The notes: generated from the letters alone by a model not told the origin. A stretch of DNA of 64,000 nt from Rhodospirillaceae bacterium (GCA_038127535.1 JAYPHU010000014.1:713-64712); one strand, 5' to 3'. Shown: positions 1 to 64,000, counted from the stretch's first letter. Program-made: numbers and translations.

Positions 1-528
1 AATATCTGGACGGCTCTTAGGTTTCCGGTCTTCCGGTAGATGAGTTGGTACGCCGCAGCCAATGATTGCTGTAGGTACATGGATCAAGATTTATCTCTGT
101 GACCCACTTTTCGACAAACTAGTATATTAGCGCGTGCAGATAGACTTGAGGCCTCTCCCTCGTCCAAGGAACAAGAATGGTGAGTTTAGTCCCTTCCTAC
201 TATTAAGGTACGGATCAACAGCCGTTCTGGAGTGTTCCGATATTTAAAACGTTACCGGTCGACCAGTCTTCTGCCGCCTAATAGTTGCTCGTCCTTTTAC
301 ATATCCATTGGGGGCTACGTCGTCGATCCGCAAGCTGACCAAATCACATCCGCGTAGTTTGCTATCAATGGCTAAGTTGAACATCGCCAGATCACGGACT
401 CGGCCATCTAGTTGTAGACGTGCCCTGATTGCCCAGACATGTTTTGGCTTCAAAGGTGGTCTTTGGCCAACAAGTTTCCCTTTGTTCCAAGGTGTAAGGG
501 TTTGATTTCTAGATTGAAACAGTAACAT
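1..528 (-). pseudogene. Tyrosine recombinase/phage-integrase family pseudogene, running off the window edge
   Basis: ORF 244-528 begins PWNKGKLVGQRPPL...DSKLRGCDL (catalytic Arg region). Reading past TAA 244-246 gives ISEHSRTAVDPYL...FLFLGR...TR, a second TAA, then frameshifted WVTEINLDP..YSNHWLRRT and LIYRKTGNLRAVQI, matching the HxLRRT and pre-LGH motifs. Confidence 0.85.
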
Positions 529-591
529 GGTCTTCCTCCATTTGAGTTAGAAAGACCTGTCAGATTACAGAGGGATCAATCCCAGATGGTA

Positions 592-662
592 GTCCGTACC
601 GAGGCTACCAGCGGACAAACCTGGAGGCTGGGAAAATCGTCCGCTCATGACCCATTGCAGAC
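592..662. repeat. Alternating GTCCG(C)/GCGGAC short inverted motifs upstream of the integrase
   Basis: GTCCG 592-596, GCGGAC 611-616, GTCCGC 639-644, TGACCC 648-653, GCAGAC 657-662. Confidence 0.4.
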
Positions 663-692
663 ACCGACACTGAGATTAATGAGGCATCAGCA

Positions 693-1583
693 TTAAATAT
701 CAATCCGCATGTTGTCGTGAGCGAGGCGAAGTTCGCCGGTATAGGTCTCCCGGATGTCGGCGGCGACCTCATCCAGGAGCGCCGGACCGATCATTTCCTT
801 CGGCATGTGCACGCCCATAATGTCCTTCACCACCGGATTGCAGGTGTCGTAGCTGCCGAAATGTGTGGCCACTAGGCGCTTGGCGTTAGCTTTCTCGGCG
901 ATTTCCCCCAACGCCTTCGGATAGGTGTGAGACCAGGTGCCGACCTGGACCTTCTTGCGGAACTCGATGGCGCTTTCCGGGAAGGTGCATTCGTGGATCA
1001 TCAGGTCCACGTCTTTGGAAAGCTCAATAAACCGGTCGCAGGGCGCCGTGTCGCCGCTGAAAGACACCGACTCCCCGTCAATGGTATCCATCCGCAAGCC
1101 GAAGCAAGGTGAAATCTCGGTCGGGATATGTTCCACATAGCACGCGGTGACCTTCACCAGATCATCCTCGAACACCAGACCGGGCTGGCATTCCCGCACG
1201 TCCGGCACCAGGATTTCCGTGTTTTGCCGGCGCGGGTATTGACGGCGGGCCTCGATATCCTTGGCGAAGGCCCCATCCTCAAATAGATGGTCGATGAAGT
1301 TCTGGGTGCCTTCCGGACCGACGACCACAGGTGGCTGTTCCCGGTCACAAATCCAGGACGTCAGCAGGAAATAGGGAAAATCAATGATGTGATCGTAATG
1401 CAGGTGCGACAGGAAGACATGATTCACTTCCGTGGGGTTGATGTTGGACTTGATCATCGAGCGCGTGGTGTTGGCTCCACAGTCGAATAAGTAATGCCGT
1501 CCGCGAACAGTAAGAAGAATACCCGATCCGCCACGGTCGGGGTCGGGGGCGGCGGCGCTGGTGCCGAGCATAGTTACGCGCAT
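693..1583 (-). CDS. MBL-fold metallo-hydrolase, RNase Z/ElaC/AtsA-like
   Basis: LGTS N-terminus, LFDCG, HLHYDH (HxHxDH), SGDT, HECT, SHT and THF motifs. Confidence 0.85.
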   Translation of the reverse strand: MRVTMLGTSAAAPDPDRGGSGILLTVRGRHYLFDCGANTTRSMIKSNINPTEVNHVFLSHLHYDHIIDFPYFLLTSWICDREQPPVVVGPEGTQNFIDHLFEDGAFAKDIEARRQYPRRQNTEILVPDVRECQPGLVFEDDLVKVTACYVEHIPTEISPCFGLRMDTIDGESVSFSGDTAPCDRFIELSKDVDLMIHECTFPESAIEFRKKVQVGTWSHTYPKALGEIAEKANAKRLVATHFGSYDTCNPVVKDIMGVHMPKEMIGPALLDEVAADIRETYTGELRLAHDNMRIDI

Positions 1584-1619
1584 GATGTGAACTCCTTTAC
1601 TCTTCCTGTTTCTCTATAC

Positions 1620-2063
1620 TTACTGATTAGCGGTTATCTGAAACTCAATCGTGATGCCGTCGGGATGGCGTAAATAAACATTACAATTGCCGTTGGGAAC
1701 CGTCAGCGGGGGGCTATACGGAACAAAGCCGCTGGGCGTGATGGCCGCCACGGCCGCCTCGATATCATCAACCTCCAACGCCAGATGAAACGCGCCGGGA
1801 TCGCAGTTGCGAAGATCGGAAATCTTTCGATCGTCTTTGGTGATGTACTCCAACAACTCCAGCCGATGACCCGGCATATCCACGAAACAAAGTTTCACTT
1901 CGGCGCCGGGAACGCCGGTCAAGTTCTCCACCATTTCTCCTTTGTGGTGGAAAATCTCTGTCGTCTCGCAGCTCAAGACATCCCTGAAGAACGAGGCTGT
2001 TGCTTCAATATCTCTGACAGTGATGCCAGTATGGTTGGTGCGTTTGATGGTAAATCCGCTCAT
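1620..2063 (-). CDS. VOC/glyoxalase family protein (methylmalonyl-CoA epimerase-like fold)
   Basis: NHTGITV, LELLEY, FHLALEVDDI, HPDGITIEF. The likely start is ATG 2063 with GAGGAAGG upstream (track ORF starts at 2111). Confidence 0.8.
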   Translation of the reverse strand: MSGFTIKRTNHTGITVRDIEATASFFRDVLSCETTEIFHHKGEMVENLTGVPGAEVKLCFVDMPGHRLELLEYITKDDRKISDLRNCDPGAFHLALEVDDIEAAVAAITPSGFVPYSPPLTVPNGNCNVYLRHPDGITIEFQITANQ

Positions 2064-2391
2064 CTTATCCTTCCTCAGTTCAGAAGCCCGTCCGCCATCA
2101 TGCACAAACACAGATTAGTAGGAGTCTCCGTCCGCCATAAACCAAGCGCCCCGTTCAGGGCTTTTTTAATGGGTGGCGAGTGCGGCAGTCTCGTAGCCTC
2201 TATTTAATAAAAAGCGGTTCGAGCCGACGCGCGCCGGTGACCACAGGCTACGGAGCGACGCGCCTCTTCTAGCTCCGCGAGGTAATCCCTCTCCCTCCGC
2301 CAGTCAGTCTGTCCCTGAAACTCGGCCCTCTCAACCTCCCTCACGAACCTCTCGGTTCGGCTGGATTGACCCTCGCAATCCTTGCGCGGCA

Positions 2392-4719
2392 TCAGGCCTG
2401 ACCGGCGTCGATCAAATTACAGAGATATTCCGGTGTGACAGGATACCGGTCGACGGTGACGTCAAAGTCCCGAAGCGCGCTTTCGATCGCCGCGATCACG
2501 GCGTTGGCGGCGGGAATCGTACCGCCCTCGCCCGCGCCCTTTAGCCCCAGCGGATTGAGCGGTGACGGCGTCTCATGGTGGACAATGTTGATGGGCGGCA
2601 TTTCCGTCGCCAACGGCAGGAGGTATTCGCCGTAGTTCACGTTCTGGGGTTGACCGCTATCGTCGTAGATCATCTCCTCGAACAGCGCGTTGCCGATCCC
2701 GTGGACAACGCCACCGATGATCTGCCCTTCCACAATCAACGGATTAAGCTTCTTACCGCAGTCGTGGGCCACACAGTAGTTCAGCAGCTTGACCTCGCCG
2801 GTACCGATGTCCACTTCGACTTCGCACACATTGGTGCCGCTGGCGTGGGGCGGTCCTTTCGACGCGTCAAACGAGGTCGCTTCCAGGCTGGCCATGTGAC
2901 CGGCGGGCACGGCTACCCCGGCCATGGGCGCCAATTTCAAGGCGATCTCCCCAAGGCTGATAGTGATGTTGCTACGGCCTTTGTCGCGGACGAGGCCGTC
3001 CTCGAACACCAGATTGTCGATGTCGGTTTCCAGGACTTCGGCCGCCAGCGCGAGCGCCTTCTCCCGGATTTCGGCGGCAGCGCCAAACGCCGCCGTGCCG
3101 ATATTGACGCCGACCCGGCTGCCAATGGTGCCCACGCCTTGGGGAAACTTGCCGGTATCCCCTATGTCCACATGGATATCATCCATGTCAACGCCCAGCT
3201 CATCGGCAATGATTTGTTTAAGAACCGTCTTATGCCCCTGGCCCTGGCTGGCGGCGCCGGAACTGACATAGATTTTTCCTTTGGGGTCTACCCGGATGGT
3301 GACGCCTTCGTAGGGCCCCATCCCGGTGTCCTCAACACACGACGAAACGCCGATGCCGAGATAGCGCCCTTCCTTACGGGCCGCCTCTTGGCGGGCGGCA
3401 AAACCGTCATAGTCAGCGAGGCTCAGCGCCTTTTCCAACAGGCTGTGATAGTCGCCGCTGTCATAGGTCATGGCCCGGCCGTTAAAGTGGATCAGGCCGG
3501 TCTGGTAAGGGAAGTCGGCCTTCTCGACGAAATTACGCCGCCGGACTTCCGCCGTGTCGATCCCCAGTTCCCGGGAGACGAGTTCGATCATCCGCTCAAT
3601 GGCATAAGCGGCATTTGGCCGGCCCGCGCCGCGTACCGGTGAATTCGACACGGTGTTGGTGAACACCACGTCCTGGGTCAGATCGAGAGCCAATATTTTA
3701 TAAGGCCCCGGAAACGGCGCCATCATGGTAAAGGGCAAAAGAATGCCATACGGCACATAAGCGCCATTGTCGTTCACCAGCCGTCCACGGATCGCCTCAA
3801 TACGCCCCTTTGCGGTCGCGGCGACTTCCAACTCCCACCAGGTATCGCGCTGGGTGTTTGTCGTGGTGAAATGCTCTTTCCGGTCTTCGATCCACTTGAT
3901 CGGCCGTCCAAGTTTGCGCGCAGCCCAAGGGGTGATGATCTCCTCGACATAAAAGCCGGCTTTCGGGCCAAATCCCCCACCGACGTCCGGCGCGATCACC
4001 TGAATGCGGCTTTCCGGCAAATCAAACTGATTGGCCAGGCAGCGGCGCACCAGATAGGGGCATTGGGTTGCCGACCAAATGGTGAATTCATCGCCGAAGG
4101 AGTCGTGTTGCGCCACCACGCCCCGGCCTTCCATGGCATGGCAGCCGCCGCGATGTTGCAGGAATTCCGCCTTGAACACGTGCTCGGCCTTCGCAAACGC
4201 CGGCTCGACGTCGCCGTAGATGATGTTCAGTTGGGCGATCAGGTTATCCGGAGAGTCTTTGTGCGCCTTGGGGGCATCATCATCCATGGCTTCCCTGAGC
4301 CGGACGATGGGAGGCAGTGTTTCGTACTCGACCTGGATGAGCGGCAAGGCGTCCTCGGCAATATGCCTTGTTTCAGCGACAACAAACGCCACGGCTTCGC
4401 CGACGAAGCAAACCTCGTCCTTCGCTAGAGGATACGGTGTGATATCCTGGGCGATAAGCGGGTTCGGATAGGGCTGCACCTGACGCCCATTCACCGGTTC
4501 TTCCAAATCCCGATAGGTGAAGACGGCGTGCACCCCCAGCAGCGCTTCTGCAGCGCTGGTGTCGATTGATTTGATCACGGCATGAGCATGAGGACTGCGC
4601 AAATAAGCGCCGTGCAGCATGCCGAGGAGTTTTAGATCGTCCACATATTGGCCCCGGCCCGTGAGGAGCGCCTGATCCTCGCCCCGTTGAACTTCAGCCC
4701 CTGTAAGTCTGACACCCAT
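2392..4719 (-). CDS. Xanthine dehydrogenase family molybdopterin-binding subunit (CoxL-like, not form I CODH)
   Basis: EDQALLTGRGQYVDD, RSPHAHA, VGGGFGPK, PVRGAGRP loop instead of AYRCSFR, QGQGH, KGAGEGG. The likely start is ATG 4719. Confidence 0.92.
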   Translation of the reverse strand: MGVRLTGAEVQRGEDQALLTGRGQYVDDLKLLGMLHGAYLRSPHAHAVIKSIDTSAAEALLGVHAVFTYRDLEEPVNGRQVQPYPNPLIAQDITPYPLAKDEVCFVGEAVAFVVAETRHIAEDALPLIQVEYETLPPIVRLREAMDDDAPKAHKDSPDNLIAQLNIIYGDVEPAFAKAEHVFKAEFLQHRGGCHAMEGRGVVAQHDSFGDEFTIWSATQCPYLVRRCLANQFDLPESRIQVIAPDVGGGFGPKAGFYVEEIITPWAARKLGRPIKWIEDRKEHFTTTNTQRDTWWELEVAATAKGRIEAIRGRLVNDNGAYVPYGILLPFTMMAPFPGPYKILALDLTQDVVFTNTVSNSPVRGAGRPNAAYAIERMIELVSRELGIDTAEVRRRNFVEKADFPYQTGLIHFNGRAMTYDSGDYHSLLEKALSLADYDGFAARQEAARKEGRYLGIGVSSCVEDTGMGPYEGVTIRVDPKGKIYVSSGAASQGQGHKTVLKQIIADELGVDMDDIHVDIGDTGKFPQGVGTIGSRVGVNIGTAAFGAAAEIREKALALAAEVLETDIDNLVFEDGLVRDKGRSNITISLGEIALKLAPMAGVAVPAGHMASLEATSFDASKGPPHASGTNVCEVEVDIGTGEVKLLNYCVAHDCGKKLNPLIVEGQIIGGVVHGIGNALFEEMIYDDSGQPQNVNYGEYLLPLATEMPPINIVHHETPSPLNPLGLKGAGEGGTIPAANAVIAAIESALRDFDVTVDRYPVTPEYLCNLIDAGQA

Positions 4720-4729
4720 GACCCTCTCC

Positions 4730-5209
4730 TCAGCGTCCCCGCATCTGTGACGCTGCATCAAGCGCGGCGGCCACAATGCCCTGATAGCCGGTGCACCGGC
4801 AGATATTCCCCGAGACAGCCTCCCGGATTTCCGCTTCCGTTGGATCAGGATTGTCCCGGAGATAGGCGGTCAGGGTCGTCAAAAAGCCGGGCGTGCAAAA
4901 GCCGCACTGCAAACCATGGTGTTTGCGAAACGCCGCTTGCAGGGGATTCAGCTGGTCCCCGTCAGCCAGACCTTCGATGGTGGTGATGTCTTTTCCATTC
5001 GCCTGAACGCCGAGCATCAGGCAGGATCTTACGGCCTCACCATCCACCAGGACCGTACAGGCGCCACAGGCCCCGTGTTCACACCCGACGTGGGTACCGG
5101 TGAGATTCAATTTCTCACGCAGGATGTCGGCCAGATTGTATCGGGTTTCCACCGTTTCCGTGTACGATCTGCCGTTGACCGTTAGCGTAATCTCTCTCGT
5201 ATCCGCCAT
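4730..5209 (-). CDS. (2Fe-2S)-binding small subunit (CoxS-like)
   Basis: [12 protein letters not shown]...RSC and QCGFCTPG...CRCTGY. The likely start is ATG 5209. Confidence 0.93.
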
Positions 5210-5213
5210 CGAA

Positions 5214-6080
5214 TTACTCTCCCCCGCCTGCGCGTTCGGCCGCGGAGGCCAGCGCTCGCTGGACCAGCGTGTCCGCCAGCCGCTGCCGGTAGGCCGCGCT
5301 GACATATGTATCCGACATGGCGTCGATCTCTCGGGCTTCGGCGCCGGCGGCTCTGAATGTTTCCTGATTGGCCGGTTGGCCGGCCAGGTTCCCTTCCACG
5401 TCCGTCAGACGCGTTGGTTTTACATCCGCACCCGCGACGGTAATGGCCGCCCTAGTTATCGTGTTATCGCTCAGCTCGATAAGAGCGCCGACGGCGGTGA
5501 TGGCGAAATCCCCATGACGCCGGGCGAATTCCGTAAAGGCGTACCCATGCCCCTCCGGCCAAACGGGGAGAGACAGCGAAACCAGCACCTCCTCCGGCGC
5601 GATGCTGGGCATCATGTAGGCAATGACCCATTCTTCCATGGGCACCTCCCGCTCGCCCTCTTTTCCGGCGACGGTCAGAGTTGCGCCATAAAGGCTGGCG
5701 ATCGCCGGCAACTCCGCTGACGGGTCCAAATGACAGAGGCTGCCGCCGATAGTGCCCCGGTTCCGGGTTTGAAGATGCCCGACATGGCCGAGAGCCTCTC
5801 TCATCACCGGGGCAGCGTCTTGAATCTCCGGTGCGACCAGCAAAGCCCTTTGACGGGTCATCGCCCCGATCCGAAGCGACCCATTTTCGCGCTCAACAAA
5901 ATCCAACTCGGTGACGCCGTTGATATCTACCACATCGTCCGGCGCGACAAAACGCATATTCATCATCGGCATCAAGGATTGGCCACCCGCCAAAATCTTG
6001 GCGTCTTCCAGCCCGGCCATCAGATCGACGAGCTCGGTCAAGGATTGGGGATCGTGATATTTAAACGGCGCCGGTTTCAT
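5214..6080 (-). CDS. FAD-binding medium subunit (CoxM-like)
   Basis: MKPAPFKY, LAGGQSLMP, RNRGTIGGS, RRHGDFA. The likely start is ATG 6080. Confidence 0.92.
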   Translation of the reverse strand: MKPAPFKYHDPQSLTELVDLMAGLEDAKILAGGQSLMPMMNMRFVAPDDVVDINGVTELDFVERENGSLRIGAMTRQRALLVAPEIQDAAPVMREALGHVGHLQTRNRGTIGGSLCHLDPSAELPAIASLYGATLTVAGKEGEREVPMEEWVIAYMMPSIAPEEVLVSLSLPVWPEGHGYAFTEFARRHGDFAITAVGALIELSDNTITRAAITVAGADVKPTRLTDVEGNLAGQPANQETFRAAGAEAREIDAMSDTYVSAAYRQRLADTLVQRALASAAERAGGGE

Positions 6081-6648
6081 TCTTGGCCTTGTCGCATCCG
6101 AATTTAAGTCGGCCAATTCCGGCCTTTACCAAGAGTTTCAATCCCGAAATTTCGCCCGCGTCAAATTCGGTGCCGTCCTCGGCGGTCAACACGGTCGCCA
6201 AATTATCGGCGAATTCCTTGGTGAGTTCCTGCGCCACGCCTTCAATTAACCCGCTGGCGCGGCCGTATTGAGCGATTGATCCATTGAGCGTCAGATCCGT
6301 TGTTACTACGACGCGGGTGGCCGAGGCTTCTTCGACGGCGGCGTCATTATCCAGGAGCTGAAACGTAACTATGGCTTCCGCGCCGCCTCGGCCTTTTTTG
6401 TCGGCGCCGCTCGCCCGGACGCTGGCGGTGTGTGCGGCAAGATTGATCTCTATGATTTCTGCCCGGCCGGAGAAGGTGAGTTTTACAGGGCCCAGCCGAA
6501 CCGCAGCCTCGCCCGCATATTTGGTATCGGCCTCCGCCTCGGTCACTGAAACGCCGGGAAGGCACGGCGCAATTAAAGGCACATCGGTCAGGACTTGCAT
6601 TGCCGCATCTTTTGGCAAGGCGACGATAAATTCATTTGTCAGGATCAT
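6061..6648 (-). CDS. coxG: CoxG / SRPBCC family protein
   Basis: APCLPG, VRLGPVKLTF, GSIAQYGR. It sits directly upstream of the M-S-L genes. Confidence 0.85.
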   Translation of the reverse strand: MILTNEFIVALPKDAAMQVLTDVPLIAPCLPGVSVTEAEADTKYAGEAAVRLGPVKLTFSGRAEIIEINLAAHTASVRASGADKKGRGGAEAIVTFQLLDNDAAVEEASATRVVVTTDLTLNGSIAQYGRASGLIEGVAQELTKEFADNLATVLTAEDGTEFDAGEISGLKLLVKAGIGRLKFGCDKAKNETGAV

Positions 6649-6849: not shown

Positions 6850-7965
6850 ATGCCTAGAACTATGGATAAAATTTTCGCTGCGGGACTTACTGCGGCTTTG
6901 GTGTCGCTGGGATCTGCTGGCGTCGCTTCCGCTCAAAGTCTTACACCGCAGGAAAAGAAACTTATCGCCGGCGCGAAATCCGAAGGCGCCGTGACCCTGA
7001 TCAACCCTCTGTTTAGCGACCGCACCGGCCAACGCATGGCGGCCGCCTTTAAGAAGCGCTATGGGCTGGGTGATGGGTTCCAGTTCAACAATCTGCGGAA
7101 GGGTACCGGTGCGACCGTGTCCCAGGTCCGTCAGGAAATCAAAGCCGGTAAGTTTACGATTGATGCCATCATGGTGAGCGCTCCCAGCTTTTTCGATGCT
7201 GGCGCAAAGCGTGGCGTGTTCCTTGAACTCGATAGCGGCTACTGGAAAGATTCTGAGCCGGTGGCCAAGGCCGCGGGGCAGTATTACAAGTATCCGTTCG
7301 TGGTCACGCCGTTGGGCTATACCTTCCAGCCGGTCTGGAATTCCGCCTGTCCCGGCATGGAGAACTTCAATGTGAGCTCCTACGCGGACACGACAATCGC
7401 GGCGGTCAAAGGTAAGACCATCGCCTCCGAGATCACCAAGAGCACGACCTACACGAACACAGCTATCGCGCTGTCTCAGGCCGGCGCCCTTGACCTCGAT
7501 AAGTTCTGGCCGGCCTTGAAGGCGACCGATCCGCTGATTGAATTCCGGACCGAACCCAAAATGCAGATGGTCATCTCCTGTCAGCGGCCGTTTGATATGT
7601 GGAACCTGGCTGGTCGCGTCTATCAGAACGTGATCAAGCAACCTGCCTTGAAGGGTAAAATTAAACTCGGATCCTACAAGGAAGGTCAGGTCATGCTCGG
7701 CAACCAGATTGCCGTCTTGAAGGGTTCCCCGCATCCAAATGCCGGTAAGTTGCTTGTTGAGTTCCTGCTTAGCAAGGAAGGATCGGATCTGTTCGTCGAG
7801 GGTGAGGCGGTCTACAGCCTGCGCAAGGGGTACACGCCTCCGGCCGCTGCGGCGCCTTATCTGATGGATCTGAGCAAGCAAAAATTGCTTGGCATGAAGG
7901 ACTGGGTCGGCTCCGCGAAGGAGATCAAACCTACCCGCGCGAAGTGGGAGAAAAACTTCCGCTAA
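6850..7965 (+). CDS. ABC transporter substrate-binding protein (iron/thiamine/phosphonate-type family)
   Basis: Signal peptide ending ASA-Q, AGAKSEGAVT, PHPNAGKLLVEFLLSKEG. GGGAGG RBS. Confidence 0.85.
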   Translation: MPRTMDKIFAAGLTAALVSLGSAGVASAQSLTPQEKKLIAGAKSEGAVTLINPLFSDRTGQRMAAAFKKRYGLGDGFQFNNLRKGTGATVSQVRQEIKAGKFTIDAIMVSAPSFFDAGAKRGVFLELDSGYWKDSEPVAKAAGQYYKYPFVVTPLGYTFQPVWNSACPGMENFNVSSYADTTIAAVKGKTIASEITKSTTYTNTAIALSQAGALDLDKFWPALKATDPLIEFRTEPKMQMVISCQRPFDMWNLAGRVYQNVIKQPALKGKIKLGSYKEGQVMLGNQIAVLKGSPHPNAGKLLVEFLLSKEGSDLFVEGEAVYSLRKGYTPPAAAAPYLMDLSKQKLLGMKDWVGSAKEIKPTRAKWEKNFR

Positions 7966-7989
7966 TCTTCCTGCTACGACATTAGAATT

Positions 7990-8014
7990 GGGTGGGCGTT
8001 TATAGCGCCCACCC
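7990..8014 (+). terminator. Stem-loop after the SBP gene (terminator or mRNA-stabilising hairpin)
   Basis: GGGTGGGCG-N7-CGCCCACCC, with no strong U-tract. Confidence 0.55.
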
Positions 8015-56311: not shown

Positions 56312-56340
56312 AGATACCTCCCGGGGTTACAAAGTTATAC

Positions 56341-56360
56341 AATTTTCCTTTCGGAAAATT
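56341..56360. promoter_or_regulatory. Candidate operator AATTTTCC-N4-GGAAAATT
   Basis: Perfect 8-bp inverted repeat in an AT-rich divergent promoter, with an extra GGAAAATT at 56432-56439. Confidence 0.45.
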
Positions 56361-56445
56361 ATCGGTATTATTATTGGGAATCTTGGGAAAGAGCAACTAA
56401 ATATCTTGTGAGTTATGACGTAAAGTATACCGGAAAATTGGGGAA

Positions 56446-57477
56446 ATGACCGAAATTATCAGAGACGAGATCACCACGGCGGACGCCTGGATGGGCGCGG
56501 AAATCCAGCATCAGATGGACTGGACCTGGCATCTGACCGGCGGGGAGATCGAGGAAATCGACGCGGCGCTGCACACCGCCAAGGCCGCCGGCGCGGAGAT
56601 TCCCTTCTCCAAGGACTTGTTTCCTCTACCCACAGTGCAGAAGCGGCTGGAGAAGGTCGTCCGAGAGGTTTCTGACGGCCGGGGTTGCGTGATGGTGCGC
56701 GGCCTGTCCCGCGATCATTTTACCGATGAAGATTGCGCGCTTATCTATTGGGGCATCGGCGTTCACCTCGGCACGCCCGTTTCCCAAAACAAACGCGGCC
56801 ACTTGCTGGGCCATGTCACCGACGAGGGCAAGGATCTGAGCGACCCGGACGCCCGTGCCTATCAGACCCGAAATAAGCTGGACTTCCACTGTGACCAGTT
56901 ACCGGTGGATATCCTTGGCCTGATGTGTCTGCGCGGGGCCAAGATCGGTGGGGCCAGCTATCTGGTCAGCGCCCCCATGGTGCACAATGTTTTCCTCCGG
57001 GAACGACCCGACCTTTTGGAGTATCTCTATCAACCCCTGCACATTGATTGGCGGGGCGACCAGCCGCCGGGCGAACAGCCCTGGTACGACGTGCCCATGT
57101 TCTCGGCCAAGGACGGCCGTATCTCGGCGCGGGTCACCAGCCGGGCGTTTATCGAGTCCGTGGTCCGCTACGGCGACGAGCTGACGATCAGCGAGAAACA
57201 ACGCGAAGCCGTGGACGTAGTGCAAGATATCGCCAACCGGCCGGAGCTCCGGCTCTCCATGGAGTTTCAGGAAGGCGACTTCCAGTTCATCAGCAATCAC
57301 TCCATCATGCACGCCCGCGAAGCCTATGAGGACTATGACGACCCGGCTTTGAAACGGCATCTTTTGCGCATGTGGATCGGCCTGCCGGACGAGCTGCGCC
57401 GCCCTCTCTCACCGCTGCTGGATCATCGCTATGATTATGTAAAGATCGGCGGCATCCCCAAACACGCAAACGCCTGA
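56446..57477 (+). CDS. TauD/TfdA family Fe(II)/2-oxoglutarate dioxygenase
   Basis: GRGCVMVRGL, LGHV, FHCD (HxD), GGASYLVS, NHSIMHAR, RHLLRMW. Confidence 0.9.
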   Translation: MTEIIRDEITTADAWMGAEIQHQMDWTWHLTGGEIEEIDAALHTAKAAGAEIPFSKDLFPLPTVQKRLEKVVREVSDGRGCVMVRGLSRDHFTDEDCALIYWGIGVHLGTPVSQNKRGHLLGHVTDEGKDLSDPDARAYQTRNKLDFHCDQLPVDILGLMCLRGAKIGGASYLVSAPMVHNVFLRERPDLLEYLYQPLHIDWRGDQPPGEQPWYDVPMFSAKDGRISARVTSRAFIESVVRYGDELTISEKQREAVDVVQDIANRPELRLSMEFQEGDFQFISNHSIMHAREAYEDYDDPALKRHLLRMWIGLPDELRRPLSPLLDHRYDYVKIGGIPKHANA

Positions 57478-57484
57478 GGCTCCC

Positions 57485-58591
57485 ATGTTCAAAATACAAA
57501 AGATCGATTCCTATGCTGTCAGTATGCCGCTGAAGTCACCGATCAAGATGGCGGGTATCGTTGTAGAGACGGCAGATAATCTGCTGGTACGCGCAACGGA
57601 CAGCGATGGCAATGTCGGCTGGGGCGAGGCATCGTCCGCACCCACAATGACCGGTGAAACCCCGGAAAGCATGTTGGCCGCAGCGCACTTTATCGCCCCC
57701 CGGATAGAAGGGCTGGAAATCGAAGCCTTGTCCCATATTCACCATCAGGTGGATGCGCCCATGTATGGAAATCACGGGGCCAAAGCGGCGATCGAAATCG
57801 CCCTGCTGGACATCGCTGGCAAGCGGTCAGGTAAGCCGATCTATGAATTACTGGGCGGCGCTCAGCGTGACGAGGCAAGAATATTGGCCATGATCGCCGG
57901 CGGTGACTTGGAGACCGAGAAAGCCAACGCTCGGAAACTGGCTGATGCCGGCTTTGACGCGTTCAAGGTGAAGATCGGCATTCTGGGTGCTGATCTGGAC
58001 CTAGAAAGATCGGCGGCGACAAGAGCTGTTCTTGGTGAAGACGTGCAGATATCCGCCGACGCCAATCAGGGCTATACCCGCGATGACGCTCTGGATTTTG
58101 CCAGAGGCGCTCGGCAGGCGGGGTTAAACTTTATGGAACAGTTGCTGCCGGGTTCGGATATCGAGGGGATGGCTGCCTGTGCCGAGGAAACCGACGTGCC
58201 GCTCGGCGCTGACGAGGGCATTCACAGCCTGAACGATCTGCGCGCCCACAAAGATGCGGGCGCCGCCAAAGGCGCAAGTCTGAAAGCCATTAAACTGGGC
58301 GGGCTGTTCCCGGTGATAGAGGCGGCCAACTGGATGAACGGCAATGGGATGCATATCAATCTGGCCGGAAAGGTCGCCGAATCGACCATCGCCAGCGCCG
58401 CCGTCGCGCATGTTGCTTTGGCTTTGCCGCAGCTGGACTGGGATACGTCTATTACCAATCAGTATCTGGCGGAAGACCTGGCCGATGATTCCTTGAAGAT
58501 CGAAGACGGTGTGGTTCGTCTGGATGATCGGCCCGGACTGGGATGGGAGCCGTCCGAAGAACGGCTCCAGCGATTCCAAATCCTGCAGTAG
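57485..58591 (+). CDS. Enolase superfamily, muconate-lactonizing/dipeptide-epimerase subgroup
   Basis: GWGE, FKVKIG (KxK), DANQ, EQ, DEG metal ligands, KAIKLGG. Confidence 0.9.
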   Translation: MFKIQKIDSYAVSMPLKSPIKMAGIVVETADNLLVRATDSDGNVGWGEASSAPTMTGETPESMLAAAHFIAPRIEGLEIEALSHIHHQVDAPMYGNHGAKAAIEIALLDIAGKRSGKPIYELLGGAQRDEARILAMIAGGDLETEKANARKLADAGFDAFKVKIGILGADLDLERSAATRAVLGEDVQISADANQGYTRDDALDFARGARQAGLNFMEQLLPGSDIEGMAACAEETDVPLGADEGIHSLNDLRAHKDAGAAKGASLKAIKLGGLFPVIEAANWMNGNGMHINLAGKVAESTIASAAVAHVALALPQLDWDTSITNQYLAEDLADDSLKIEDGVVRLDDRPGLGWEPSEERLQRFQILQ

Positions 58592-58594
58592 ATC

Positions 58595-59689
58595 TTAGTC
58601 TATTTTGAACAGCCGCTTGGCGGTGCCGCTGAGGATGCTCTCGATATCCTCGTCGCTGAGACCTTCCGCGCTCAACAAATGCGCCACCGGATTGCGGTTG
58701 GTCATGCCGAAGTCATGGTCCGTGCCGAGCATCAACTGTGACACGCCGACTTCCGTGATCAGATGCTCCAGGTTCTCCGTGCCGTAGACCAGCGTGTCGA
58801 AATAGAGCTGGCGGATATATTCGCTGGGCTTCTTTTTCTCGAGCCCCCGGCCGCCCCGGTCCGCGCTATTATGGCCATGATCAAACCGGCCGATATAAGA
58901 CGGCAGGAACCCACCGCCGTGGGCCGCGGCGATCTTGAGACCCGGGAACCGGTCCAACGTGCCTTCATAAATTAAGTGCGCCAACGCCGTCGCCGTTTCC
59001 AACGGATTGCCTATCATATTGGTCAGGAAGCCTCTGCCGTGTAGGCGCGGCTGCAACTCAGGCTCGATCCGGGGATGGATAAACACCACCACGTCCAGCT
59101 CTTCCGCCTTTTGCCAAAACGGATGGAACTTGGTGTTGGACAGCTCCTCACCCAGGATACTGCCCATGATCATGCAGCCCCGGTGGCCAAGCTCCTTCAC
59201 CGAATGCTCCAACTGCTTGGCTGCCAAATACGGATGCTGCAGAGACACCACGCCTATAGGAACAAACTTGTCCGGGTGGGTGGCGCAGACCTCGCTCAAC
59301 AGTTCGTTCTGCTTGATCGCGATTTCCTCCGCCAGTTCATATTCAGCCCAGGGGAAATGATTCTCGGTGGCGATGCTCAAAACTTCGATGTCCGTCCCCA
59401 TGGCGTCCATCTGCTGCAGCCGGACATCGATGTTCTCGACTTTCTTGAGCTGACCTTCGTAAGGGTTCTGACCGCCCAGCTCCTCCCGGCCCTCAACCAT
59501 GGGCCAAATCTGGGAGAACTGGCAGTGGGCATGCATGTCGATCACCAGAGAACGTTTGCCGTTGATCGAGATCGGCCGGGGCGTCTGCGGTTCAATTGTA
59601 GACGGGTTCCGGTCAAAGGCCGGCTTTTCAGGATGATAGTGAAGTTGGCAGCCGACGAATTCCACACCGGTCGAGTCTTCATCAGACAT
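58595..59689 (-). CDS. Amidohydrolase-2 family protein (ACMSD-like)
   Basis: IDMHAH, FIHP, IGNPLET, HGGGFLP, LGTD. The likely start is ATG 59689. Confidence 0.9.
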   Translation of the reverse strand: MSDEDSTGVEFVGCQLHYHPEKPAFDRNPSTIEPQTPRPISINGKRSLVIDMHAHCQFSQIWPMVEGREELGGQNPYEGQLKKVENIDVRLQQMDAMGTDIEVLSIATENHFPWAEYELAEEIAIKQNELLSEVCATHPDKFVPIGVVSLQHPYLAAKQLEHSVKELGHRGCMIMGSILGEELSNTKFHPFWQKAEELDVVVFIHPRIEPELQPRLHGRGFLTNMIGNPLETATALAHLIYEGTLDRFPGLKIAAAHGGGFLPSYIGRFDHGHNSADRGGRGLEKKKPSEYIRQLYFDTLVYGTENLEHLITEVGVSQLMLGTDHDFGMTNRNPVAHLLSAEGLSDEDIESILSGTAKRLFKID

Positions 59690-59802
59690 TGAGTTCCCCT
59701 GGGTTACGCACATTGAGATTTGCCCAACTGTACTGAATTGGGTTTGCCCGGAAAAGACCGAGGGGATAAATAGGCAGACAAGAAAACAGGGAAGAGAATT
59801 AG

Positions 59803-60004
59803 GTGCCTGACGGAGCTTCAGGAGGACGGCAATCGGTCGGCGTCGATATCGGCGGCACGTTCACCGATCTTGTCGCCATCCGGGACGGCGGGATCGTTGT
59901 CAGCAAATCCTCCACCATCGTGGACGACCCGACCACCGGATGACGCCGACTGTGTGGAGATCGCCGGCATTTCCACTGCCGAGACTAACGAGTTCCTTCA
60001 CTAA
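59803..60004 (+). pseudogene. Hydantoinase/oxoprolinase A-subunit N-terminal remnant
   Basis: GTG 59803 gives VGVDIGGTFTDLVAIRDG...DDPTTG then TGA 59941. A shifted frame continues ADCVEIAGISTAETNEFLH and stops at TAA 60002-60004, where HGTT is expected. Confidence 0.8.
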
Positions 60005-60019
60005 AGACCCTACCTTCAC

Positions 60020-60054
60020 AGAAAAGGCCGGCTCGTTCCCGGCCGGCCCTCTTC
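60020..60054 (-). terminator. Rho-independent terminator of the second TAXI operon
   Basis: Minus strand GGCCGGC-N9-GCCGGCC followed by TTTTCT. Confidence 0.65.
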
Positions 60055-60079
60055 TAACTTTTGTCACTCGATGATCAGA

Positions 60080-61093
60080 CTACATGACCATCTTCGTGGC
60101 TTTGTCGTTTGCCTTCATGGCGTCATCGGTCCACAGGCCCTGGGCCTTGTAGAACTCAACAGCGGCCGGGTGATACGGCACCATCGGGAACAGAGTCACC
60201 GCGGCCTTCTTTTGGAAGCCTTGGAAAACCGGGCTGGATTTGGTGAAGGCGTCGGTGCCTTTCCACAGCGCCTCGGTGATCTTCTTGGCCGTGGCGTTAT
60301 CCATATCCTTACTAGCCTGTAGATAGGTGTCATAGGTGATCAGGTTGGTCGGACCCATGATCCCCAACGGCGGGATCGGCTTCGGGAAGTGGGCCAACTG
60401 CAGACCCGGGAACATCATTTCCCGCATCTTGGCCAGCTTGGCCGGAGAATTGTCGAAGCTCAGGAACCGGACCTTATTCTTGGCATGAATTTCCCGAATG
60501 ATCGGCATGCCGACCGCGCCCCAGCTTGAATCCACCCGGCCCGCGCCGAAGGTCTTGATGCCGTCCACCACGCCGGTGACCGGAACTTTAACCACGTCGT
60601 CCCAAGTGATTCCGCCATTATCGAGGCCCGTCGCAATGGAGTGCGGCAGGGTCGAGTGGCCGCCGAAATCGGAGGTCAGCTTTTTACCCTTGAGATCGCC
60701 GACCTGCTTGATCGGAGAGTCGTTGCGCACGATAAGGCCCAGACGCAGCACGTTCGGCCCGGCGCGAAGGATGCGGTAGTTGGTGCGCTTTTTCTTGGCC
60801 TTGTTGCCGCCGGTGACTTCCAGATAAATGGAGCTGGCGGTGATAACCGCAAGTTTGATTTCACCATTGTTGTGCGCGTCGAGATAGGCGTCAGGGCCGG
60901 CAAACGGCCGCACCACAAAGCGCATGTCGGAATTGTCGGTCAGGGTCTTGGCCATGGCGGTGCCGACCCGGTTCATCAGGCTGCCCTGACGGTCGGTCGC
61001 GATCACCATGGTTTGCGCCTGCGCCACGCCCGCCGCAAAGGTCATCAAACCGGCGCTAATCGCCAGTGCAGTAAATTTCTTGGATACGTACAT
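60080..61093 (-). CDS. TAXI family TRAP solute-binding subunit
   Basis: Signal peptide, IATDRQGS, DLKGKKL, VPYHPAAVEFYK. Confidence 0.9.
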   Translation of the reverse strand: MYVSKKFTALAISAGLMTFAAGVAQAQTMVIATDRQGSLMNRVGTAMAKTLTDNSDMRFVVRPFAGPDAYLDAHNNGEIKLAVITASSIYLEVTGGNKAKKKRTNYRILRAGPNVLRLGLIVRNDSPIKQVGDLKGKKLTSDFGGHSTLPHSIATGLDNGGITWDDVVKVPVTGVVDGIKTFGAGRVDSSWGAVGMPIIREIHAKNKVRFLSFDNSPAKLAKMREMMFPGLQLAHFPKPIPPLGIMGPTNLITYDTYLQASKDMDNATAKKITEALWKGTDAFTKSSPVFQGFQKKAAVTLFPMVPYHPAAVEFYKAQGLWTDDAMKANDKATKMVM

Positions 61094-61211
61094 AAATTAC
61101 CTCCCAAAGGTTGAATACCGTACATACGGCTTGGTGCGAATTGGTGGCGTATTATCAGCCACACTTATAATCATATCAATAGAACAAATAAGGCGGATAG
61201 ATGATCTCGTC

Positions 61212-63188
61212 CTACCCCGCTTCGCCCGCCGGCTGGGACCGCGCCTTCAACTGCATGACTGCAAGACCGGCGGTGATAATCGCCGCGCCGCCAATCATCG
61301 GCCAGGAGAGACCCATCCCCAAAGGAATAACCATGATAATGATGCCGCAAAGCCCGATCAAAACCTGTTCCACCATCGACATGCTCCTGAACATGTAGCC
61401 GGCCATCCCGACCGCCAATAACGCCACGCCGATAGAGGTCTTGATCGTGGCGATAGCGATATCCCCGGCGGACCCCTCAAAGATCAGGCCCGGCTGGAAC
61501 ACAAACACGAACGGCACCACATAGGCCGCGATCCCCATGCGCACCCCAGCTAGGCCGGTCTTCCAGAAATCCGTATTGGCGACGGCACAGGCTGCAAATG
61601 TGGCAATACAGATGGGCGGCGTGATCATCGACAACATGCCGAAGTAGAAGATGAACAGGTGCGCCGCCATTTTCGGAATCCCTGCCTGCTCCAGCGCCGG
61701 CGCTATCAACAGGGCAAGCATGAGATAAATCACGCCCGAGGGCATCCCCATACCGAGGACAATGCAAACAATAGCCGTCATAAGTAGCAGACTCAGAGCA
61801 CTGTCGCCCGCCATTTCGGTCAGCAGCAGAGAGAAGTTGAAGCCCAACGTGGAGATTTGTATGGAGCCGATGATCATACCAGCCAGTGCGGTAATGATCA
61901 CCAGCTCCAGCACGGTCTGCCCTGTTTCCCGCACCGCCAGCCACAATTTGTTCACCGAAGGCCGGGTCGCCGGGTTGAAAAAGGCGACCGCGACGGTCAC
62001 ACCGACCGCCAGCATGGCCGACTCGCCGGGCTCCCACGCCTCTACCAAAAGGGTCCAGATCAACAGGAAAATCGGGATGATGAAGATCCAGCCCCGGGCA
62101 AGGATATTACCCACCGAGGGCGCGTCGGTCGTGTCCACGGGTTTAAGATTTCGCTTCGCCGCTTCCAGGTCCACCTGCATGAACAACGCCAGATAGTACA
62201 TCAGCGCCGGCAACGCGGCAGCGATGATAACCTCGCCGTAGGTTACCCCCATCACATCGACCATCAGGAACGCGACGATGCCCATGACCGGCGGCATGAT
62301 CTGACCGCCCGTGGACGCCACGGCCTCAATGGCGGCAGCTACATGGCCGCGATAGCCGGACTTCCGCATCATCGGGATGGTAATCGGCCCGTCCATAACC
62401 ACGTTAGAGACCGCACTGCCGGAAATGGTGCCGAACAGGCTGGACGCCACCACGGCGACCTTGGCCGGCCCGCCCCGGTACTTACCCATGGTGGTCAGCG
62501 CGAAGTCGTTCAGGAACTTGTCGCCATTGGCCGCGAACAACACCCGGCCAAACAAGATGAACGCGACGATGATGCCGGTTGTCACGTCCAAGGGCGTGCC
62601 CAACAACGCGTTATTGTCGAGATAGAGATACGTGGCGATCCGGTTCAACGGCGTGCTCGGCACATTCAACAAGCCCGGCGCAAGATGAGACAAGGCGGAG
62701 TAGCCAACAAACACTGCCCCCATGATCACCAGCGCCCAGCCTGTCGCCCGGCGGGTAGCCTCGAACACCAGGATCACCGCGGCATACCCGAGGACGATGC
62801 GTTCCGGACGCAACTCCCCGATGGTCTCGACGATATCGCGGTAGGTGGCGACCACGAACAGGCCGCAGATCAAGCAGCCGAGCGCAAACAGCCAGTCGTA
62901 CCAGGGCACCTCGTTGCTGGGGTTTTCCCGGTCCGACTTCAACCCGATGAAGATCGCCGCCATGGCGAGGGCGAAGATCAGCGCCAGGAACTGTTCCTTG
63001 AAAACGGCGAAGCCGATAATGTGATGCAAGTTAATAGACCAGCCGGCACAGAGGATAGTAATCGCCGCCACCAGAAAGTTCTGGATATAGAGCGGGCCGC
63101 CGCTGAGCTGCCGCCACTTGCGGGTGCCCATCAGATCTTCGACCTGCTCTAGGTTTTCTGCGGCCGCAGCCGAATTTTCAGTACTCAT
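61212..63188 (-). CDS. TAXI-TRAP fused 4TM/12TM permease
   Basis: GGPAKVAVVASSLFGTISGSAVSNV, EAVASTGGQIMPPVMG, GMGMPS, ITPPICIA. The likely start is MSTENS at 63188. Confidence 0.92.
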   Translation of the reverse strand: MSTENSAAAAENLEQVEDLMGTRKWRQLSGGPLYIQNFLVAAITILCAGWSINLHHIIGFAVFKEQFLALIFALAMAAIFIGLKSDRENPSNEVPWYDWLFALGCLICGLFVVATYRDIVETIGELRPERIVLGYAAVILVFEATRRATGWALVIMGAVFVGYSALSHLAPGLLNVPSTPLNRIATYLYLDNNALLGTPLDVTTGIIVAFILFGRVLFAANGDKFLNDFALTTMGKYRGGPAKVAVVASSLFGTISGSAVSNVVMDGPITIPMMRKSGYRGHVAAAIEAVASTGGQIMPPVMGIVAFLMVDVMGVTYGEVIIAAALPALMYYLALFMQVDLEAAKRNLKPVDTTDAPSVGNILARGWIFIIPIFLLIWTLLVEAWEPGESAMLAVGVTVAVAFFNPATRPSVNKLWLAVRETGQTVLELVIITALAGMIIGSIQISTLGFNFSLLLTEMAGDSALSLLLMTAIVCIVLGMGMPSGVIYLMLALLIAPALEQAGIPKMAAHLFIFYFGMLSMITPPICIATFAACAVANTDFWKTGLAGVRMGIAAYVVPFVFVFQPGLIFEGSAGDIAIATIKTSIGVALLAVGMAGYMFRSMSMVEQVLIGLCGIIIMVIPLGMGLSWPMIGGAAIITAGLAVMQLKARSQPAGEAG

Positions 63189-63336
63189 GCGCCTACCTGT
63201 GAGAATCGCCGCCTTTTTGAACTGGCTCAAAATTGGTGAGGTCAGCCTAGTATGAATCTCAATTCGAGAAAAGCGTGTCCTAATAGGGGAATGTCGAAAT
63301 ACTTGGAAAGCGCTCGGGAACACAATAAGCTCTCGG

Positions 63337-63351
63337 GAGATTAATAATCTC
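63337..63351. promoter_or_regulatory. Candidate operator palindrome GAGATTA-A-TAATCTC
   Basis: Perfect 7-bp inverted repeat in the TAXI/VOC divergent region. Confidence 0.4.
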
Positions 63352-63368
63352 ATCGACGGGGGCGGCAA

Positions 63369-63890
63369 ATGGATCAAACGACACCCAAATCGGACGTGCG
63401 CAAGAAACCCTTGCTTGATCTGGATTTTCTCTCCCATGGCACGGTGGAATGCTATGACCTGGACGCCACTCGGCGCTTCTATGAAGAGGTTTTGGGCATG
63501 GAGGTGGTGCAGACCAGCGCCCGTTCCATCATGATCCGGCTCAACAGCACGACAACCATCGCCGCCGTCGCCAGCAAAGGCGGCACCAGCGCAGGGCTCT
63601 ACAATCATTTCGGCTTCGACGTGGAGACCAAGGAACAGGTGGATGAGGCTTACCAGAAAGTCATGAAGGTCAAGGACGAGTACGGGATCAAAAAAATCAC
63701 AAAGCCCGTCGGCCAGCACGGCACCTATTCCTTCTATATCGTCGATCTGGATGAGAATTGGTGGGAAATCCTGGAGAACCCCAAAGGCGGCTACACCTAT
63801 GTCTTTGACGTAGATGAGAATGCCGTCGCCTGGCGGGATCAGGATCACGGCCAGGGTCGCCGCGAAAAGTGGGAAGAAAAGAAATCATGA
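63369..63890 (+). CDS. VOC/glyoxalase family protein
   Basis: LSHGTVEC, FYEEVLGMEV, NHFGFDV, SFYIVDLDENWWEI. Confidence 0.88.
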   Translation: MDQTTPKSDVRKKPLLDLDFLSHGTVECYDLDATRRFYEEVLGMEVVQTSARSIMIRLNSTTTIAAVASKGGTSAGLYNHFGFDVETKEQVDEAYQKVMKVKDEYGIKKITKPVGQHGTYSFYIVDLDENWWEILENPKGGYTYVFDVDENAVAWRDQDHGQGRREKWEEKKS

Positions 63891-64000
63891 CCGGCACCGC
63901 AACCCTTTCCGCCGAGGTCAAACCTTTTGACAACGGCGCCGGCGCGGAGATCGCCGGGATTGATCTCTCCCAGCCCCTGCGGGAGGAGGATTTCATTGTC
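63887..64000 (+). CDS. TauD/TfdA family dioxygenase, N-terminal fragment truncated by the window edge
   Basis: ATG overlaps the VOC stop (ATGA). GAEIAGIDLSQPL is the typical TauD N-terminus. Confidence 0.7.
   Translation, partial: MTGTATLSAEVKPFDNGAGAEIAGIDLSQPLREEDFIV

Follow-up and report, generated by a model that had tools for sequence, protein, structure and literature searches.

Probable accretion of catabolic cassettes, rather than a single pathway, in a gene-dense 64-kb region of a Rhodospirillaceae genome

The Hmf pathway for 2,5-furandicarboxylate and 2-furoate employs the UbiD enzyme HmfF with the UbiX protein HmfG, the ligase HmfD, HmfE, and the molybdenum hydroxylase (Mo-hydroxylase) HmfABC, the substrate of which is a coenzyme A (CoA) ester. 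In the picolinate (pic) and nicotinate (nic) pathways, the first step is catalysed by a Mo-hydroxylase; the pic pathway includes the amidohydrolase-2 decarboxylase PicC, and the isochorismatase-type maleamate amidohydrolase NicF/PicF and the alpha/beta-hydrolase deformylase NicD act in these pathways. The supra-operonic islands of soil bacteria, such as the aromatic-acid island of Acinetobacter baylyi ADP1, have a dedicated regulator for nearly every operon. We analysed a 64,000-nucleotide stretch of contig C14 (C14:713-64712; hereafter, the window) from a metagenome-assembled Rhodospirillaceae genome of 3.53 Mb in 89 contigs (completeness 98.7%, contamination 0.6%). A preliminary description had presented the window as a dense, nearly regulator-free catabolic cluster with an N-heteroaromatic and organic-acid theme. 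Our reading, to which we assign a probability of roughly 0.72, is that the window is the core of an approximately 77-kb catabolic hot spot made of accreted cassettes rather than of one pathway, and that its shortage of regulators is a genome-wide one.

Judged by its enzyme families, the central operon of the window, which encodes a UbiD decarboxylase, a three-subunit Mo-hydroxylase and two amidohydrolase-2 proteins, comes closest to the lumazine pathway among known systems. Lumazine/pterin cluster I of Cupriavidus sp. LA-1 encodes LuDH, DHLI and XCDC/UbiX (Doi et al. 2025, PMC12391406). LuDH is a three-subunit Mo-hydroxylase outside the classical COX, XDH, PAO and IOR groups, and the LA-1 UbiD is a decarboxylase dependent on prenylated flavin mononucleotide (prFMN) and remote from the known UbiD enzymes (PMC12391406). 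The chemistry consists of hydroxylation by water, rearrangement or opening of the ring, and decarboxylation, with neither O2 nor CoA needed (PMC12391406). DHLI is comprised of two paralogous amidohydrolase-2 subunits, approximately 65% similar and approximately 27 kDa each, and its beta subunit is always accompanied by a CobW-type GTP-binding protein; UbiX and a pterin or cytosine deaminase are also part of the cluster (PMC12391406). The homarine operon, homABCD(E)R, encodes the FAD protein HomA, HomB, the peptidase HomC, the aldehyde dehydrogenase HomD and a regulator (PMC13236597).

Open reading frames (ORFs) were called in the window by length and third-position GC; all 57 were scanned with Pfam, and the 34 non-transport proteins with NCBIfam. 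There were 34 enzyme genes, 21 transport genes and one GntR/FCD regulator (19969-20700). The inventory given in the preliminary description was reproduced item by item, including two three-subunit Mo-hydroxylases, UbiD, three amidohydrolase-2 proteins, a cyclase, an isochorismatase, two alpha/beta hydrolases, and a CoA-cleavage operon of four genes (acyl-CoA dehydrogenase (ACAD), CoA-transferase III, MaoC and CitE). The second of two listed TauD proteins proved genuine (Pfam TauD, 189 bits), although its gene, which starts at approximately 63887, runs past the right edge and ends 1.5 kb beyond the window. Seven solute-uptake systems had been listed, and seven binding-protein-dependent importers were found: two complete ATP-binding cassette (ABC) systems, one tripartite ATP-independent periplasmic (TRAP) system, one tripartite tricarboxylate transporter (TTT) with a fused TctA-TctB, two TRAP-associated extracytoplasmic immunogenic (TAXI-TRAP) systems, and an ABC ATPase and permease without an adjoining secreted binding protein. 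Six binding proteins with a signal peptide were encoded. As had been stated, the window carried no core housekeeping gene (no ribosomal, replication or biosynthetic gene) and a single regulator. An Rfam search of the window returned no family and no riboswitch.

The density of the region was assessed by counting TRAP/TTT permeases, Mo-hydroxylase large subunits, amidohydrolase-2 proteins and UbiD in 251 sliding windows of 64 kb each, placed on the contigs that reach that length (2.3 of 3.5 Mb), with the paralogues identified by phmmer searches of the window proteins against six-frame ORFs. The contig of the window scored 9-10, compared with 6 in the next best region and a mean of 1.6, and the window region is thus the densest 64 kb of the genome for the families counted. 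These families were expanded throughout the genome, with 20 Mo-hydroxylase large subunits, approximately 20 amidohydrolase-2 proteins, four UbiD, approximately 30 TRAP/TAXI permeases and 14 TctA. The other large subunits scored 160-540 bits against the two of the window, the self-scores of which exceeded 1800, and they are therefore old paralogues. Similarly, 10-34 large subunits were present in each of the 25 genomes examined from the same bacterial family, compared with 0-9 in the other families of the order.

Of the four UbiD genes in this genome, three lie immediately beside a gene for a Mo-hydroxylase large subunit (C5:112-124 kb, L039; C4:28-32 kb, L040; and 32419-37858 in the window), and the fourth lies 7 kb from one. 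Given 20 such large-subunit genes in 3.5 Mb, we estimate the chance of such adjacency at approximately 1e-4, which makes coincidence very unlikely. The large subunits linked to UbiD on C5 and C4 have no adjoining small- or medium-subunit genes; the C4 pair is preceded by an AMP-binding CoA ligase, and the C5 cluster also encodes TctC/TctAB, a thiamine pyrophosphate (TPP) enzyme, TauD and a class II aldolase. UbiX was represented by a single gene, on contig C26. At least 23 UbiD-family matches were found in each of five genomes of the same bacterial family, spanning two genera. The UbiD-rich relatives (G007, G014, G024 and G027; also G004, G021 and G025) have 26-34 Mo-hydroxylase large subunits and 1-10 LysR regulators. 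The UbiD expansion in those relatives is unusual for aerobic marine Alphaproteobacteria. Literature searches for an expansion of Mo-hydroxylases or UbiD in this lineage, and for a pathway of UbiD, Mo-hydroxylase and amidohydrolase in marine bacteria, returned nothing relevant.

The window is divided by 18 strand switches into at least 19 transcription units, counted by strand alone, and its 20 intergenic stretches of at least 50 bp sum to 3.1 kb (4.9%). Comparison was made with a sister species (G001; 85-89% nucleotide identity), the genome of which is an independent assembly from another study. A 67.6-kb contig of this species was collinear with window positions 14714-63995 (49 kb). In place of 16800-21495, which holds the TRAP genes DctPQM, the GntR regulator and a short-chain dehydrogenase/reductase (SDR; 4.7 kb in all), the sister species has 58 bp, and the only regulator of the window is thus part of a cassette that the sister species lacks. 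Conversely, the sister species carries an additional 5.7 kb of hydantoinase-like genes between the amidohydrolase AH2_c and the second TAXI system (TAXI_P2). Positions 2391-14660 were found on a different contig, C22, where the block of an ABC importer and a GFO oxidoreductase (6850..13183) is collinear. The breakpoint in the window lies between the cupin and the cyclase (14660-14714), and in the sister species non-homologous sequence runs on for 1.3 kb and more than 6 kb past the breakpoints. Collinearity ends at 2391, and in the sister species neither the VOC nor the MBL gene follows the Mo-hydroxylase large subunit, so these two are not conserved partners of that enzyme. In more distant genera, only small modules were kept. 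The window therefore does not behave as the coherent cluster that had been proposed: it comprises at least 19 transcription units, its blocks lie apart in the sister species, and its cassettes come and go.

Regulators of seven families were counted across the genome: four LysR, four GntR (including that of the window), two to three TetR, approximately 19 MarR, two IclR, one AraC and one LacI. The total of approximately 34 in 3.53 Mb predicts 0.6 per 64 kb, compared with the one observed, and there is accordingly no local depletion. The phrase "nearly regulator-free" thus fails as a property of the locus, the shortage spanning the genome. LysR numbers ranged from 1 to 29 in 40 relatives and were low (1-10) in the UbiD-rich uncultured genera; the poverty of regulators is a genome-wide and lineage-wide trait. 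The GntR protein was considered as a master regulator of the region and rejected, as its candidate operator, the palindrome TTATCGATAA, was found only in the intergenic region of its own cassette, and the sister species retains the region without this GntR. Elsewhere, the palindrome had one site with one mismatch, no more than expected by chance, and k-mer counting found no operator- or promoter-like motif common to the 20 intergenic regions. A homologous UbiD, Mo-hydroxylase and TTT cluster on a Neorhizobium plasmid has MarR, GntR, ArsR and UbiX within 21 kb. Because one-component regulators are scarce genome-wide, expression of the cassettes is probably constitutive or globally controlled.

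The features of the window are listed below (assignments by Pfam unless stated otherwise).
247..546, minus strand: truncated integrase (tyrosine-recombinase) fragment in the lower-GC, non-coding left edge.
693..6648, minus strand: CoxG (6061-6648), the medium (M), small (S) and large (L) subunits of Mo-hydroxylase 1 (2392-6116), a 62-aa ORF, a VOC/glyoxalase protein and an MBL-fold hydrolase.
6850..13183, plus strand: ABC importer (6850-12068) with an SBP_bac_8 binding protein, a fused double permease and two TOBE ATPases, then a GFO/IDH/MocA oxidoreductase.
13180..16694: aldo-keto reductase (AKR) and cupin (minus), cyclase (14752, plus) and HsaA/HpaB-C2-like flavin monooxygenase (minus); Pfam and NCBIfam.
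16860..21489: cassette of the TRAP importer DctP-Q-M (16860-19848, minus), the GntR/FCD regulator and the SDR (both plus).
Within 21497..31232: quinone oxidoreductase, NitT/TauT-type ABC importer with an NMT1 binding protein (22519-26263), and a GMC oxidoreductase.
Within 21497..31232: second ABC ATPase and permease (27934-29392), the membrane protein TauE, and a cytoplasmic binding-protein-like protein (30366-31232; no Pfam assignment).
31442..39013, minus strand: operon of AH2_b, UbiD (36209-37858), subunits M, S and L of Mo-hydroxylase 2 (32419-36184) and the ACMSD-like AH2_a; the two amidohydrolase-2 (AH2) genes are at 31442 and 37958.
Within 39187..47809, mixed strands: the membrane protein EamA, TTT importer (fused TctA-TctB, TctC; 40183-43644) and isochorismatase-like amidohydrolase (43732).
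Within 39187..47809, mixed strands: FAD/NAD(P)-binding protein, GFO oxidoreductase and RutD-like alpha/beta hydrolase (46868).
47827..51499, plus strand: acyl-CoA dehydrogenase, family III CoA-transferase, MaoC hydratase and CitE-like lyase.
Within 51496..64000: FrsA-like alpha/beta hydrolase (51496) and TAXI-TRAP 1 (52702-56311), minus; FrbJ-like TauD hydroxylase and MLE-type enolase, plus.
Within 51496..64000: ACMSD/LigW-like AH2_c (58595) and TAXI-TRAP 2 (60080-63848), minus; start of the second TauD/TfdA gene, plus.

The central operon has a single orientation, and its neighbouring genes share 4 nt or are separated by 24-99 nt. Six genomes, from five other genera, keep the five-gene core UbiD-M-S-L-AH2_a, and a seventh, from another family of the order, has it split; AH2_b was not conserved beside the core in other genera. 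In one genome (G026), the TauD/AH2_c pair lies 7 kb from the core operon. The comparison with solved structures placed UbiD nearest to HmfF (134 bits) and AH2_a nearest to ACMSD (135 bits), with isoorotate decarboxylase and LigW lower, and gave only remote matches for AH2_b. The large subunit of the second Mo-hydroxylase (MoL2) matched Mycobacterium smegmatis CoxL (419 bits), quinoline 2-oxidoreductase (363 bits) and Kdh (314 bits). For the large subunit of the first (MoL1), the best NCBIfam match was carbon monoxide dehydrogenase group 5, with 780 bits against a cut-off of 950. The two scored 520 and 444 bits against the form I carbon monoxide dehydrogenase model TIGR02416 (cut-off 991), and the form I loop AYxCSFR was absent from both, MoL1 having PVRGAGR and MoL2 neither motif.

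The 288-aa protein encoded at 30366-31232 resembles a cytoplasmic binding protein and has no Pfam match, no PDB match and no signal peptide. Its homologues (C5:123299-124207, L034 12329-13213 and L041 6358-7293) adjoin UbiD or Mo-hydroxylase genes in the C5 cluster of the same genome and in another family of the order. On the Neorhizobium plasmid, the homologue (25% identity, E 2e-9), annotated as "ABC transporter substrate-binding protein", lies inside the Mo-hydroxylase operon. The protein may be a functional partner of the UbiD and Mo-hydroxylase enzymes rather than a transport protein. In a metagenome-assembled Burkholderiales genome (L004 4166-11437), a UbiD and a cyclase that are 64% and 63% identical to those of the window are encoded 5 kb apart, with TRAP genes between them; this hints at a functional link between the UbiD and cyclase cassettes, which 20 kb separate in the window.

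Among proteins of known structure, AH2_c was nearest to ACMSD (125 bits), with LigW lower; the cyclase was nearest to isatin hydrolase A (50 bits), and the isochorismatase to N-carbamoylsarcosine amidohydrolase (89 bits) and the maleamate amidohydrolase 3uao (84 bits). The TauD hydroxylase was nearest to FrbJ (179 bits), and the MLE-type enolase to the N-succinyl-amino-acid-racemase-like protein 2p88 (171 bits) and muconate cycloisomerase (142 bits). The GMC oxidoreductase scored 561 bits against the NCBIfam cut-off of 605 for the choline dehydrogenase subfamily. None of the 34 enzymes reached a curated NCBIfam cut-off, and the hom, Hmf, pic/nic and Rut sets were incomplete or absent, in agreement with the earlier statement that no module matches a complete known pathway.

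TRAP, TAXI-TRAP and TTT importers are classically specific for carboxylates. In the proposed hot spot, about a dozen small cassettes, in at least 19 transcription units, would have accreted on one contig of this uncultured marine Rhodospirillaceae genome, and in each cassette a few enzymes that modify rings or cleave amides would accompany a high-affinity importer dependent on a binding protein; NitT- and PotD-type ABC systems are encoded as well. The Mo-hydroxylases would insert a water-derived hydroxyl group, the enzymes of the UbiD and ACMSD/LigW types would act as non-oxidative decarboxylases, and the flavin and Fe/2-oxoglutarate enzymes would hydroxylate. The cyclase, isochorismatase and alpha/beta-hydrolase types would hydrolyse C-N and C-O bonds, and the CoA operon, the genes of which are separated by -11 to +11 nt, could convert a resulting C4-C6 dicarboxylate to acetyl-CoA and a 2-oxo acid. 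The cassettes would be old, diverged paralogues of families expanded throughout the bacterial family, individually gained, lost and reshuffled between species. We infer that the substrates are aromatic or N-heteroaromatic compounds and aliphatic carboxylates, and the order of the reactions is inferred in the same way.

The N-heteroaromatic theme of the preliminary description is a plausible one for two to four modules rather than an established one for the 64 kb. The nearest relatives that act on nitrogen compounds were quinoline 2-oxidoreductase, Kdh, isatin hydrolase, the N-carbamoylsarcosine and maleamate amidohydrolases, ACMSD and isoorotate decarboxylase. Our best guess, drawn from likeness at the superfamily level, is that the Mo-hydroxylase operons and some of the amide hydrolases have an N-heteroaromatic substrate. 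The theme is limited to these modules because the same families also serve carbocyclic aromatic acids, C5-dicarboxylates and polyols, and we leave the GMC enzyme, the CoA operon and the polyol-type dehydrogenases out of it.

Several points weigh against the reading of the window as a hot spot of accreted cassettes. The density test took its queries from the window and scanned only contigs of 64 kb or more, and the count covers just the families named. The separation of the blocks in the sister species rests on the contig ends of a draft assembly. Furthermore, regulators outside the seven families counted (Crp/Fnr, AsnC, XRE, LuxR and two-component systems) could act in trans, and a MarR protein encoded elsewhere could control several of the units. 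An alternative explanation is that the window encodes functionally linked pathways for N-heteroaromatic compounds (pyridine, pteridine, indole and pyrimidine carboxylates), with cassettes that feed one another and lead finally into the CoA cleavage operon. The large subunits of the two Mo-hydroxylases lie near quinoline 2-oxidoreductase and Kdh, the isochorismatase near the N-carbamoylsarcosine and maleamate amidohydrolases, and the cyclase near isatin hydrolase; however, these likenesses are all at the superfamily level and under every curated cut-off, and the families also serve lignin-derived and carbocyclic acids (LigW, gamma-resorcylate decarboxylase, muconate cycloisomerase). The central operon shares its three enzyme families with the lumazine pathway (PMC12391406), genes for hydantoinase A/B and an amidase follow just past the window, and the Burkholderiales relative of UbiD lies near its cyclase homologue. 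On the other hand, nothing ties the GFO, AKR, SDR, GMC and CoA modules to nitrogen, the window yielded no NicX- or PicD-type ring-cleavage dioxygenase, and the blocks are unlinked in the sister species. We regard linked pathways of this kind as unlikely.

A second alternative is that the region is a horizontally acquired genomic island that lacks regulators because it was delivered as cargo. The integrase fragment at the left edge, with the lower GC there, a foreign-looking low-GC3 stretch (third-position GC of 0.43-0.49) at 78-86 kb of the contig, and cassette-sized indels between the sister species would suit such an origin. The catabolic genes, however, have a uniform GC3 of 0.62-0.83, the GC of the window is mostly 0.55-0.62, within the contig range of 0.51-0.61, the sister species has orthologous blocks, five other genera share the core operon, and both the paralogous cassettes and the poverty of regulators extend over the whole genome, all of which makes acquisition as an island quite improbable. 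The form of an island flanked by tRNA genes was rejected, as a search found no tRNA in the window. That the cluster is a mis-assembly or a binning chimera is barely credible: the genome is a metagenome assembly in 89 contigs and its many paralogues could mislead an assembler, but the independent assembly of the sister species is collinear over 49 kb on its 67.6-kb contig, a second contig of it covers 12 kb of the left part, and completeness and contamination were 98.7% and 0.6%. Thus, accretion of cassettes remains the reading that we prefer.

At the left edge, the 100-aa open frame at 247..546 resembles the start of an integrase catalytic domain (Pfam Phage_integrase, weak, E 0.035), and the first 2 kb of the window have a GC of 0.53. 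To the right of the window, up to approximately 77 kb, the contig encodes TauD, hydantoinase A/B, a luciferase-like monooxygenase, a cupin, an amidase, a ring-hydroxylating beta-like protein, a TPP enzyme and another amidohydrolase-2. Beyond this catabolic stretch lies the low-GC3 block (C14:78-86 kb; 0.43-0.49), which includes a DUF1538 protein, and both it and window positions 1-692 look like mobile-DNA remnants. The SBP_bac_8 binding protein of the 6850..13183 block carries a signal peptide.

Three gene models deserve comment. The flavin monooxygenase has an in-frame TAG at 16722-16724, where the intact protein of the sister species, which has a longer N-terminus, has a glutamate (...LPLVEAEADESEK...); in the window, a restart at the ATG at 16694 would yield the 366-aa ORF. 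The TAG reflects either an error in the sequence or a nonsense mutation of recent date. The quinone oxidoreductase ORF (21497-22933) has a 155-aa N-terminal extension that overlaps the ABC permease gene, and both its domain and its alignment with the sister species start near residue 150. The divergent ORFs of the alpha/beta hydrolase (46868) and the acyl-CoA dehydrogenase (47827) are separated by only 17 bp as called, and for this reason the TTG start at 47809 is probably placed too far upstream.

Since the window is not one system, its value lies in its sub-modules, namely the UbiD-MoMSL-ACMSD-like operon, the CoA cleavage operon and the cytoplasmic binding-protein-like partner, and in the genome-level pattern of expanded Mo-hydroxylases, UbiD and amidohydrolase-2, many carboxylate importers and very few regulators. 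With 20 Mo-hydroxylases, approximately 20 amidohydrolase-2 proteins and more than 45 TRAP/TTT permeases against approximately 15 non-MarR regulators (of the seven families counted), the genome is a concrete case of broad catabolic capacity without matching regulatory capacity. The six binding proteins with signal peptides and several orphan enzymes could serve as handles for finding the dissolved organic acids that such bacteria remove. A more speculative proposal, which we put forward only tentatively, is that a pelagic family of the Rhodospirillaceae type has built a large toolkit to "hydroxylate with water, then decarboxylate", with neither O2 nor CoA needed and almost without dedicated regulators, and that this toolkit continuously strips carboxyl groups from dilute marine heteroaromatic polycarboxylates. 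It would draw on the 10-34 Mo-hydroxylases per genome, the approximately 20 ACMSD/LigW-type amidohydrolases here and the at least 23 UbiD in some genomes, and would be supplied by dozens of TRAP, TAXI and TTT carboxylate importers. Candidate substrates in marine dissolved organic matter are pteridines and lumazines, pyridine carboxylates and similar carboxyl-rich molecules. If this were true, the strategy would have its richest single locus in the window.

The likeness of the central operon to the lumazine cluster is that a three-subunit Mo-hydroxylase, amidohydrolase-2 and UbiD are encoded together at 31442-39013. In contrast, the window has no paired alpha and beta amidohydrolase subunits, AH2_a (326 aa) and AH2_b (351 aa) being 23% identical, and Pfam found no cobW, Flavoprotein (UbiX) or deaminase domain in the 57 ORFs. 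The identification of the operon as a lumazine cluster was rejected, as three families match and four defining features are lacking, with LA-1 compared by description only. An AH2-UbiD-XdhAB-CobW cluster of C. campinensis was used as a proxy for LA-1, and its UbiD is 28% identical to that of the window. This unannotated locus (L044, NZ_CP043441.1 1530029-1549216) encodes GntR, an M20 peptidase, an isochorismatase, a 466-aa amidohydrolase-2, UbiD, a xanthine/uracil permease, XdhA, XdhB and CobW. Its make-up suggests a variant of the lumazine/pterin cluster described in Cupriavidus sp. LA-1, and its 466-aa amidohydrolase-2 is possibly a fused DHLI alpha-beta.

The Hmf pathway shares with the window UbiD and a three-subunit Mo-hydroxylase, and a GMC oxidoreductase, of the family to which HmfH belongs, is encoded 8 kb away. 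However, Pfam found no furoyl-CoA ligase (AMP-binding), HmfE-type hydratase/crotonase or UbiX among the 57 ORFs, and the Hmf pathway was rejected, the match to HmfF being just 134 bits and HmfD, HmfE and UbiX not being in the window. The pic and nic pathways are matched only at the superfamily level, by a hydroxylase, a decarboxylase, a hydrolase and an amidohydrolase. The isochorismatase and the hydrolase lie in other cassettes than the Mo-hydroxylases, with scores far below the equivalog cut-offs, and a 2,5-dihydroxypyridine dioxygenase, a 6-hydroxy-acid monooxygenase and a maleate isomerase were not found in the window. A complete pic/nic set was accordingly rejected for want of the dioxygenase and the isomerase (Pfam, NCBIfam). 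The Rut pathway was also rejected, as the NCBIfam scores for RutB (44.8 bits vs 378) and RutD (145 bits vs 238.5) were low and the RutA-G set is incomplete; there was no luciferase-like RutA in the window, the nearest being 5 kb past it. The homarine operon was set aside because no aldehyde dehydrogenase or peptidase domain was found by Pfam in the 57 ORFs.

The operon at 47827-51499 follows the same logic as the itaconate, methylsuccinate and mesaconate systems (Ict-Ich-Ccl, RipABC), with a CoA-transferase (and dehydrogenase), a MaoC hydratase and a CitE-type lyase, but its NCBIfam scores were below the cut-offs for mesaconate CoA-transferase (301 vs 700), RipB/Ich (55 vs 340) and RipC/Ccl (117 vs 375). 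As a whole, the window resembles a supra-operonic island in that independent catabolic operons and transporters stand side by side, in at least 19 contiguous units without housekeeping genes. It is not conserved as a unit, its blocks being separate in the sister species, and it has one regulator for at least 19 units, within a dispensable cassette. The window is best classed with the supra-operonic catabolic islands, from which it differs in its regulators and in its conservation as a unit.

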